Source: Frankiaceae bacterium (GTDB lineage Bacteria > Actinomycetota > Actinomycetes > JAFAQI01). Taken from it: DNA of 53,250 nucleotides. Every line of letters starts with the position of its first letter. Position 1 is the stretch's first letter. The notes below the pieces were generated by a model. The model had not been told where the DNA came from, searched no databases, and saw only the letters and a program-made list of their open reading frames with translations. Below are positions 45,441-47,431 of the stretch, in pieces. A program made the translations under genes and the position numbers. The stretch spans positions 1 through 53,250 of the forward strand of contig JAICMI010000004.1 of assembly GCA_025929315.1 (NCBI GenBank), given 5' to 3'.

Positions 45441-47027
45441 ATGGATGGGACGGTCTCCAGCGAGTCCGGCATCCCGCTCGCGGCCGGCTACGGTCCCGAC
45501 ACCCTCCCCCCGCTCGAGCAGATCCCGCCGCCGGGTCAGTTCCCGTTCACCCGGGGCAACTTTCCGACCGGTTACCGCGGCCGGCTCTGGACCTTCCGGC
45601 AGTACTCCGGCTTCGGCACCGCCGAGGAGTCCAACCAGCGCTATCGCTATCTGCTCGAGCAAGGCGGCACCGGCCTGTCCGTGGCGCTCGACCTGCCGAC
45701 GCAGTGCGGCTATGACTCCGACGACCCCGAGGTCGAGGAGGAGGTCGGCCGCGTCGGCGTTGCCCTCGACACGCTCGCCGACGCCGAGGTCCTCTTCGAC
45801 GGCATCCCGCTCGACCAGGTCAGCACCAGCTTCACCATCAACGGCACCGCCGCGATCCTGCTGGCTTTCTACGTCGCGGTGGGGGAGAAGCAAGGCATCG
45901 ACCGCAGCAAGCTGCGTGGCACCATCCAGAACGACATCCTCAAGGAGTACGTCGCCCGCGGCACCTGGATCTGGCCACCGAAGCCGTCGTTACGCCTCAT
46001 CGCCGACACGATCGAGTTCTGCGCGACAGATGTGCCGAAGTTCAACGCCATCTCGGTCGCGGGTGCGCACTTCCGCGACGCCGGCGCCAACGCCGCGCAG
46101 GAGATGGCGTTCACGCTGATGGATGGCGTCACCTACTGCGACGAGGTCGTGTCGCGAGGGCGGATGACCATCGACGAGTTCGCGCCGCAGGTCTCCTTCT
46201 TCTTCTACACGCACGGCGACTTCTTCGAGGAGATCGCCAAGTACCGCGCGGGCCGGCGACGCTGGGCCCGGATCGTCAAGGAGCGCTACGGCGCCAAGAA
46301 CGAGAAGTCGTGCATGTTCCGCGTGGGCTGCGTCGCGGGTGGTGCGTCGCTTTACGGCCCGCAGGCACACAACAACATCGTTCGTGTCGCCTATGAGGCG
46401 ATGGCGTCGGTGCTCGGCGGCGTGCAGTCGATGTTCACCGCAGCATGGGACGAACCGTTCGCGCTGCCGACCGAGGAGTCGACGACGCTGGCTCTTCGTA
46501 CCCAGCAGGTGCTCGCGTATGAGACCGGTGTCGCGCGCGTAGTGGACCCGCTGGGCGGTTCCTACTACGTCGAAGCACTGACCGACGCGATGGAGGAGCG
46601 GGTCGTCGCCATCATGTCCGAGCTCGAGCAGCAGGGCGGGATGGTCCAGGCGATCGAGAAGGGCCATCTGCAGAGGCTCATCGCCGACGAGGCGTTCCGC
46701 GTGCAGCAAGCAGTGTCGTCCGGTGAACGCGTGGTCGTCGGGGTCAACAAGTTCGCCACGGATGAACAGTCGCCGGAGGTCGAGGGATACGAGCCCGACG
46801 AGTTGGCACGTCAGCGTCAGCTCGAGCGGCTTGCCGAAGTCAAGCGCAACCGGTCTGCCGCGGAGGTGACGTCCACTCTCACTGCCCTTTCCAAGGCGGC
46901 TGCCCGCGATGACGGGAACCTGATGCCGCTGCTCATCGACTGCGCCAAGGCCTACTGCACGGTGGGCGAGATGGTGCGGGTGCTCAAGGACGAGTGGGGC
47001 GAGTTCCAGCAGCCGAGGGTGTTCTGA
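45441..47027 (+). CDS. B12-dependent acyl-CoA mutase, substrate-binding large subunit, with an atypical active site
   Basis: [44 protein letters not shown]. Confidence 0.9.
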
Positions 47028-47431
47028 TGCCGACCCGCGTTCTCATCGCCAAGCCGGGGCTCGACGGGCACGACCGCGGTGCAAAGCTCGTCGCCCGCGC
47101 CCTGCGTGACGCCGGCTTCGAGGTGATCTACCTGGGGTTGCGGCAGCGCCCCGACGCCATCGCCAGCGTCGCGGTGCAGGAAGACGTGCAGGTGGTCGGC
47201 CTGTCCATCCTGTCGGGTGCCCATGTGCCACTGACGGCCAAGACGGCGGAGGCCCTACGCGCCGCCGGTGCCGACGACATCAAGCTCGTCGTCGGCGGAA
47301 CCATTCCGTCGAAGGACGTCGCCCGCTTGCAAGCGGCGGGCGCGGCCGCAGTGTTCCCGACCGGCACTGACCTGGATGTTGTTGTCGACGCGATGCGCGC
47401 GCTGGCACAGAACATGGACTCTGTCTCTTAG
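47027..47431 (+). CDS. Stand-alone cobalamin-binding small subunit of the acyl-CoA mutase
   Basis: KPGLDGHDRG (DxHxxG), GLSILSGAH, VGGTIP; TGATG coupling. Confidence 0.93.
   Translation: MPTRVLIAKPGLDGHDRGAKLVARALRDAGFEVIYLGLRQRPDAIASVAVQEDVQVVGLSILSGAHVPLTAKTAEALRAAGADDIKLVVGGTIPSKDVARLQAAGAAAVFPTGTDLDVVVDAMRALAQNMDSVS

Follow-up and report, generated by a model that had tools for sequence, protein, structure and literature searches.

To our knowledge, about seven specificities of acyl-CoA mutases have been described or proposed, namely methylmalonyl-CoA mutase (MCM), ethylmalonyl-CoA mutase (ECM), isobutyryl-CoA mutase (ICM/IcmF), pivalyl-CoA mutase (PCM), 2-hydroxyisobutyryl-CoA mutase (HCM/RCM), IaaGH and the proposed ActD/MatB. 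Each new specificity revealed either the bypass of a branch that blocks beta-oxidation or a route to unusual building blocks. In ICM, PCM and HCM, residue 89 is Phe, Leu or Ile and residue 207 is Gln, and in Escherichia coli Sbm(ScpA), ScpB and ScpC form a module of mutase, crotonase-family decarboxylase and CoA-transferase. The smaller pocket residues of Ecm/MeaA (Erb et al. 2008) reportedly admit a larger alkyl group, which sets a precedent. The phenylsuccinyl-/benzylmalonyl-CoA mutase IaaGH of Aromatoleum aromaticum works with IaaL, a family III CoA-transferase (PMC8360864), and ActD and MatB-MatQ were proposed as the hexylmalonyl-CoA mutase of actinonin and matlystatin biosynthesis (PMC5719088). 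In this study, we analyzed a split acyl-CoA mutase encoded at positions 45441-47431 of a 53,250-nt stretch of Frankiaceae DNA (JAICMI010000004.1). This stretch, called the window here, is the entire contig C156 (68% G+C) of a 2.65-Mb, 68%-complete metagenome-assembled genome (MAG). We favour, with a probability of roughly 0.6, a functional heteromeric adenosylcobalamin (AdoCbl)-dependent acyl-CoA mutase, the likely substrate of which is a dicarboxylic acyl-CoA with a hydrophobic substituent larger than, or additional to, ethyl. The specificity is probably new.

Two open reading frames (ORFs), for a large and a small subunit, occupy this region:

45441..47027, + strand: acyl-CoA mutase large subunit (substrate-binding, TIM-barrel), 528 aa, PF01642 (E=7.6e-200)
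47027..47431, + strand: B12-binding small subunit, 134 aa, DxHxxG motif as GLDGHDRG, PF02310 and TIGR00640

A sequence-only reading of this DNA had recognized a B12 acyl-CoA mutase, and the matches to PF01642 and TIGR00641 and the DxHxxG motif of the small subunit agree with it. The large subunit scores 674 bits on TIGR00641 (cut-off 303.8), which places it in the acyl-CoA mutase superfamily. Among solved structures it is closest to the HCM large subunit 4r3u (534 bits, E=2.6e-159), and none nearer than HCM was found. The small subunit scores 148.7 bits on TIGR00640 (cut-off 57.45) and has the His ligand of DxHxxG; among solved structures it best matches the archaeal B12-dependent mutase small subunit 2yxb (E=2.6e-41), with 4r3u_C at E=7e-31. 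Its start is most likely the ATG at 47027, overlapping the TGA of the large-subunit gene as TGATG, and the two genes are predicted to be translationally coupled.

Pocket residues were mapped one by one on P. shermanii MutB (1req_A) by HMMER alignments to solved mutases. Numbers such as Y89 are on the MutB scale and numbers of the Y55 type on that of the window protein. The alignment to 1req_A is gap-free around the motifs and gives the following correspondences:

Y89 of MutB: Y55 in the window protein, kept
Q197: Q163, kept
R207: R173, kept
H244: H210, kept
Y243: A209, changed
H328: G296, changed
Q330: V298, changed
N366: A334, changed

All these assignments had been made in the sequence-only reading. 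Its MutB numbers proved correct, the kept residues Y89, Q197, R207 and H244 and the changes Y243A, H328G, Q330V and N366A are reproduced exactly, and alignment to solved mutases does not restore the canonical residues. We further found that E370 is kept and that the pocket also carries T331A, S332G, H364F, S367A, L368W, M245F and E247D, which that reading did not list. When 196 homologues that share 76-91% of their residues with the window protein are aligned, 11 of 13 signature positions do not vary. Sixteen of 18 pocket positions are constant, compared with 41% of all columns (hypergeometric P = 3e-5), so the signature is real and under selection rather than due to chance. The two varying positions have C/V at 329 and A/S/C at 331.

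By comparison with the known family, the small subunit would bind B12 in the 'base-off/His-on' mode through the His of DxHxxG, Tyr55 and Arg173 (Y89 and R207) would hold the free carboxylate of the acyl-CoA, and His210 (H244) would assist the radical 1,2-shift of the CO-SCoA group. This residue-based mechanism points to a reversible rearrangement between a substituted malonyl-CoA and a substituted succinyl-CoA. The chemistry class follows from the residues; the substrate and the order of the pathway are inferred. The substrate type named by the earlier reading, a dicarboxylate mono-CoA ester, is consistent with the intact Tyr/Arg carboxylate pair and His general acid. A catalytically dead or purely regulatory paralogue is hardly credible: nothing specific speaks in its favour, Y89, H244, E370 and the DxHxxG His are all kept, and purifying selection is extreme. 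Moreover, gene context was compared by clustering the ORFs of 80 related loci taken from species genomes; in 78 of them a dedicated small subunit stands beside the large one, and MeaB is present in some of these gene clusters.

The split architecture is that of HCM and ICM, and HcmAB (4R3U) shares the same large/small arrangement with the window enzyme. This architecture, and an HCM as the best-scoring solved structure, could speak for a non-carboxylated acyl-CoA substrate as in ICM, PCM or HCM. However, the window protein has Tyr, Arg and Ala82 at the positions where HCM carries Ile (89), Gln (207) and Asp117 for its hydroxy-acyl substrate. Tyr55 (89) and Arg173 (207) are invariant in the 196 homologues, and a second mutase of the same genome, on contig C99, already carries the F/Q pattern of ICM. 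Identity with ICM, PCM or HCM, which the sequence-only reading had also denied, was ruled out on the two invariant residues and on the Ala that replaces HCM Asp117, and we regard a non-carboxylated substrate as very improbable.

MCM (P. shermanii MutB, 1REQ; human MMUT, 2XIJ; M. tuberculosis MutB, 6OXC) appears by sequence to share its fold and its class of AdoCbl chemistry with the window enzyme, and Y89, Q197, R207, H244 and E370 are common to both. These kept carboxylate-binding and catalytic residues argue for a carboxylated acyl-CoA as the substrate type. They would also suit an additional MCM or ECM, an isozyme whose pocket has diverged, and no canonical fused MCM was found in the recovered 68% of the window's genome. 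The architecture differs, since MCM has a fused alpha chain of ~730 aa and an inactive beta chain, while the window enzyme is split into 528 aa and 134 aa. The window protein also differs from MCM by Y243A, H328G, Q330V, T331A, S332G, H364F, N366A, S367A and L368W. Within the MCM pocket set (Y89, Q197, R207, Y243, H244, H328, Q330 and N366), four of the eight residues are replaced, by A, G, V and A, and the replacements are invariant. On the MCM equivalog NF006944 the window protein reaches 588 bits, below the cut-off of 876 bits. Canonical fused MutB (1276-1302 bits on the same model) with adjoining MutA is already present in all eight cultured genomes tested that carry the family, which come from Mycobacterium, Mycolicibacterium, Nocardia, Gordonia, Rhodococcus and Blastococcus. 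MCM identity was ruled out by the NF006944 score and by this coexistence.

NCBIfam holds no ECM model, and our reference was a fused mutase linked to ccr (crotonyl-CoA carboxylase/reductase, TIGR01751), which is a putative and not an assayed ECM. It comes from Blastococcus, the one cultured carrier with ccr, where a fused mutase of ~650 aa lies 13 kb from that gene. Its signature is Y89, Q197, R207, Y243, H244, G328, Q330, V331, N332, Q364, P366, A367 and W368, and the H328G/N366P pair named for ECM in the sequence-only reading is thus seen in it. The carboxylate-binding residues, G at 328 (G296), A at 367 and W at 368 (W336) are common to this protein and the window enzyme. In contrast, the putative ECM has a fused C-terminal B12 domain and retains Y243 and Q330, with Gln at 364 and Pro at 366. 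Of the pattern Y243, G328, Q330 and P366 in this putative reference only the Gly is found in the window protein, the other three being A209, V298 and A334. As the earlier reading had held, the losses go beyond those of ECM: Y243A, Q330V and H364F are absent from the putative ECM and invariant in the window family. On the aligned residues, Y243A, Q330V, H364F and N366A are peculiar to the window family relative to the putative ECM, and the predicted remodelling of the pocket exceeds the ECM pattern. ECM identity was ruled out by the differing pocket, the split architecture, the 39% identity to the putative ECM, and the absence of ccr from seven of the eight cultured carriers, which hence lack the ethylmalonyl-CoA pathway; ccr is also absent from the 68%-complete genome of the window. 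An MCM or ECM isozyme would have four to nine pocket residues replaced and invariant, and we consider it quite improbable.

The new pocket residues A209, G296, V298, A299, G300, F332, A334, A335 and W336 are small or hydrophobic. With four polar or bulky residues lost and Gly, Ala, Val, Phe and Trp gained, the pocket is probably wider and more apolar than that of MCM. By analogy with the ECM precedent, this suggests a malonyl- or succinyl-type CoA ester bearing an apolar substituent that is larger or additional. The bulkier alkyl, aryl or cyclic group put forward in the sequence-only reading, perhaps to bypass a quaternary carbon, is a candidate of this kind.

The mutase belongs to a discrete family, which forms one 50%-identity cluster with next relatives at most 55% identical. 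A HMMER search of 1.84 billion representatives at 50% identity gave a single full-length family representative (71% identity), and the next matches were at 51-52%. In 401 genomes drawn evenly from the phylum, matches were either 75-77% identical (nine genomes, besides the window's own) or at most 55% identical. A phylogeny had been named as a check by the sequence-only reading; in a tree that we built from 121 representatives, the family forms one long branch outside the clades of canonical MCM, ICM-like (F89/Q207) and HCM proteins. More than 530 family matches were found among the species genomes scanned. The bacterial family with the most matches is probably Mycobacteriaceae, where eight of the nine sampled genomes carry the mutase, and it was also found in Nocardia, Rhodococcus, Gordonia, Frankiaceae, Acidimicrobiia and Thermoleophilia. 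Two MAGs (L004 and L013) labelled Burkholderiales and Gammaproteobacteria encode mutases 84-85% identical to that of the window, which could reflect mis-binning, mislabelling or recent transfer. Source names in the nearest other clades are all the generic 'methylmalonyl-CoA mutase'. The nearest outgroup clade, at 51% identity, is from Thermodesulfobacteriota and has the large subunit, the small subunit and a family III transferase in a row, together with a TctC-type carboxylate-binding protein. A literature search returned no publication on this mutase family.

Cluster co-occurrence, another check proposed from the sequence, revealed two frequent partners. A family III (CaiB-type) CoA-transferase is present in 64 of the 80 loci, and a TIGR03564 F420-dependent luciferase-like monooxygenase (LLM) oxidoreductase, scoring 329.7 bits against a cut-off of 234, in 66. 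Their genes often share 4-nt stop/start overlaps with the mutase genes, and in locus L080 the codons overlap. The nearest structural neighbours of the transferase are formyl-CoA transferase, SUGCT, YfdE and Rv3272, and its best NCBIfam matches are succinate-glutarate and succinyl-CoA:mesaconate CoA-transferases; these relatives indicate a diacid-activating enzyme. An alpha-methylacyl-CoA racemase acting as a stand-in epimerase was also considered for this protein and rejected, with 88 bits compared with 186-216 for dicarboxylate CoA-transferases.

Other partners vary between lineages. A carboxymuconolactone-decarboxylase-like protein was found in 19 of the 80 loci and the Rieske cluster in 14, while a P450 of the same sequence cluster as that of the window lies within 10 kb in 13. 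MeaB is likewise within 10 kb in 13 of the 80; for the window, the earlier statement of no adjacent meaB or epimerase is correct. Loci of cultured Mycobacteriales (76-78% identity) also encode an acyl-CoA synthetase, an acyl-CoA dehydrogenase (ACAD) pair, a hydratase, a short-chain dehydrogenase/reductase (SDR) and a ferredoxin or reductase, with a MeaB-like G-protein at the far cluster end. The nearest structures of the ACAD pair are the steroid-type alpha2beta2 enzymes Tcur3481/3483 and ChsE4-ChsE5. Closer relatives (79-91% identity; MAGs of Frankiaceae, Mycobacteriales and Acidimicrobiia) add a divergent Gln-crotonase, an amidohydrolase, the carboxymuconolactone-decarboxylase-like protein, a Rieske oxygenase and CYP150. 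All partners are gathered within a single 20-kb cluster of the closest relative (91% identity), in the order ABC importer, ACAD, crotonase, mutase large and small subunits, Rieske, P450, amidohydrolase, SDR, LLM and CoA-transferase.

The genes around the mutase in the window are as follows:

39585..44595, + strand: LivHMGF-type ABC importer by Pfam, with a fused permease-ATPase (956 aa), a Peripla_BP_6 binding protein and a second ATPase
44602..45384, - strand: crotonase-family protein, divergent from the mutase, PF00378
47444..48721, + strand: cytochrome P450, CYP150A-type, 6dcd CYP150A6 (E=6e-176)
48705..52897, - strand: convergent operon of four genes by Pfam and NCBIfam matches, given in the next four lines
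51641-52897, - strand: Rieske oxygenase alpha subunit
50473-51255, - strand: SDR
49570-50472, - strand: TIGR03619-family F420 LLM oxidoreductase
48705-about 49556, - strand: SDR

The P450 noted downstream by the sequence-only reading begins with an ATG at 47444 after a 12-nt gap, with GGGAG upstream, and probably shares a transcript with the mutase genes. Hydroxylation of beta-ionone has been described for a member of the CYP150 family (PMC6237146). In the crotonase, the first catalytic Glu is E118 and the second is replaced by Gln138 ('NQ' in place of 'PE' in the alignment to 5zai), a Gln that is constant across 22 orthologues. Ordinary enoyl-CoA hydratase activity is therefore improbable, and the protein may act as an isomerase, a hydrolase or, as a guess, a decarboxylase. 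A crotonase lies upstream of the mutase in 29 of the 32 closer loci (at least 79% identity), and orthologues of the SDR at 50473-51255 are present in 12 of the 48 cultured-type loci. The ABC importer block is also upstream of the mutase in the closest relative and in L011, L012, L017 and L020, and from this synteny we infer a functional link. At 39585-42455 (+), a LivH/LivM-type permease is joined to an ABC ATPase in a single 956-aa protein, a fusion also found in the closest relative.

In the window's genome, the block from the Rieske gene onward sits on contig C101, where the P450 and Rieske proteins are paralogues of the window pair with 56% and 69% identity. The cluster of the closest relative and this C101 block indicate that partners are missing from the window partly owing to assembly and local rearrangement. 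The genome has two pairs of CYP150 and Rieske genes, at 47444-48721/51641-52897 of the window and at 3-1798 of C101. The C101 pair lies beside the block of amidohydrolase, SDR, TIGR03564 LLM and CoA-transferase, whereas the closest relative has only one pair, immediately downstream of the mutase, which suggests that the DNA was locally duplicated or rearranged or that the assembly is mixed. The F420 biosynthesis gene cofE is present in the window's genome.

Several points weigh against a substrate of the favoured kind. The case for an enlarged pocket comes from comparing side-chain sizes in aligned sequences, and the roles given to Y243, H328, Q330 and N366 are presumed from MCM structure work. 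F332, W336 and F211 exceed their MCM counterparts in size and may refill part of the space. An AlphaFold2 model from a 34-sequence family alignment had a mean pLDDT of 60, falling below 50 at residues 27-58, 166-178 and 296-380, which are the pocket segments, and was discarded as too poor. Neither the CoA-transferase nor the TIGR03564 LLM adjoins the mutase in the window, both being on contig C101 of a 68%-complete MAG. As partner genes differ between lineages, the pathway may not be uniform. The literature search gave no biochemical, genetic or expression data on any family member.

The same three bulky residues would suit a small dicarboxylic acyl-CoA that is differently substituted (2,2- or 2,3-disubstituted, or carrying hydroxy, amino or oxo groups), made by the neighbouring amidohydrolase, SDR and F420 enzymes. 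The pocket changes would then alter geometry and polarity, not volume. Tyr243 of MCM presumably blocks the C2 side where a (2S)-substituent would lie; on that assumption, Y243A would open this side and is compatible with a 2,2- or 2,3-disubstituted substrate. Amidohydrolase, SDRs and LLM oxidoreductases are the steadiest neighbours in closer relatives, and the partner transferase resembles enzymes of C4-C6 diacids. However, the new pocket residues are all apolar and bring no new hydrogen-bond donor or acceptor, and the steroid-type alpha2beta2 ACAD and CYP150 point to larger hydrophobic molecules. We regard the small substrate as possible but unlikely, and continue to favour a dicarboxylic acyl-CoA with a larger or additional hydrophobic substituent.

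For this favoured substrate, gene context suggests an aerobic, catabolic pathway. A SUGCT/YfdE-like family III CoA-transferase would make the CoA ester from the free diacid, and the TIGR03564 F420 oxidoreductase, the oxygenases (CYP150 and Rieske) and the one-Glu crotonase would take part, joined in cultured relatives by the steroid-type alpha2beta2 ACAD. A hydrophobic molecule would be degraded to a substituted succinate, activated with CoA and rearranged by the mutase so that beta-oxidation could proceed. The diacid CoA-transferase, oxygenases including CYP150, steroid-type ACAD, amidohydrolase and LivK-type importer fit such an aerobic breakdown.

By analogy, the proposed route shares the logic of the iaa pathway of IaaL, IaaGH and IaaF, in which a substituted succinate passes through a family III CoA-transferase, a split B12 mutase and an acyl-CoA dehydrogenase (PMC8360864). 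A LivK-type binding protein is near both mutases. The iaa pathway is, however, anaerobic and betaproteobacterial, unlike the context of the window. IaaGH was compared by description only; the identity gap around our family implies that IaaG is at most about 55% identical to the window protein, and the partner transferase scores only 104 bits as benzylsuccinate CoA-transferase. ActD/MatB is also split, of the HCM subclass and from actinomycetes, with a long alkyl-malonyl-CoA as proposed substrate, but its large subunit has 481 aa, compared with 528 aa here, and it belongs to nonribosomal peptide synthetase (NRPS) clusters with CCR, epimerase and MeaB (PMC5719088). Few close orthologues of it were reported (PMC5719088), whereas the window family is widespread and catabolic in context, and neither the window nor the related loci contain ccr, NRPS or epimerase genes. 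A looser likeness is seen to Sbm-ScpB-ScpC, as a mutase, a crotonase fold that is not a standard hydratase and a CoA-transferase are combined in both. This analogy suggests a route from a substituted succinate to a decarboxylated acyl-CoA, but ScpA is a canonical MCM and ScpC is not a family III transferase, unlike in the window system.

A more specific proposal can be formulated, though tentatively, since we think it rather unlikely: a new specificity for doubly substituted substrates, at the core of an undescribed aerobic actinobacterial catabolic route based on B12 and F420. The substrate would be a 2,2-disubstituted malonyl-CoA with a quaternary alpha-carbon, or a 2,3-disubstituted or aryl-substituted succinyl-CoA, admitted by Y243A on the C2 side that is closed in MCM. 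A substituted succinate would arise from a terpenoid-like, alicyclic or N-heterocyclic compound through the action of CYP150, the Rieske oxygenase and the amidohydrolase. After activation by the family III CoA-transferase, the mutase would remove the branch blocking beta-oxidation.

Contig C99 of the same genome carries a second split mutase together with a methylmalonyl-CoA epimerase and MeaB, in a region with ORFs at 7972-8370 (-), 9672-10568 (+) and 16717-18306 (+). This mutase has the ICM-type pattern RQF, Q207, HTQT and HTN, and the only MeaB and methylmalonyl-CoA epimerase detected in the genome lie 6-9 kb from it. At the edge of the window, an ORF at 52937-53248 (-), cut by the contig end, is similar to the C-terminal portion of the carboxymuconolactone-decarboxylase-like protein. 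Immediately upstream of the importer genes, a 369-aa protein with two neocarzinostatin-family (PF00960) stretches (37860-38969, -) and a 166-aa protein without Pfam match (38992-39492, -) form a pair that keeps the same position in the closest relative (L091). The PF00960 protein may bind a hydrophobic ligand outside the cell. Over 38-42 kb the AT skew is strong (-0.22). A molybdenum hydroxylase of the xanthine dehydrogenase family, with an FAD subunit and a 788-aa molybdenum cofactor (MoCo) subunit, is encoded at 32294-36781, 9-13 kb upstream of the mutase, and adjoins a PF04909 amidohydrolase, a TetR regulator and a Rieske-type ferredoxin; a pyrroloquinoline quinone (PQQ) dehydrogenase is found at 28084-30009. 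An Rfam scan of the window detected no cobalamin riboswitch and no other RNA family, and a promoter and terminator scan gave nothing exceeding shuffled controls.

Among 150 representatives of the acyl-CoA mutase superfamily (P0124-P0272) we found dozens of distinct pocket signatures, most of them without an assigned substrate. Many of these proteins keep Y89, Q197 and R207 and differ at 243, 328, 330 and 366. The window family thus exemplifies a broader gap and is not a unique oddity. It is solid as an observation and moderately surprising, because many such unassigned clades exist in the superfamily, and its novelty probably lies in a new specificity within a known kind of enzyme. Being abundant, extremely conserved and located in a recognisable cluster, the family is a well-defined, tractable object for identifying a new B12-dependent reaction, and its cluster likewise for assigning the function of the TIGR03564 F420 oxidoreductase.

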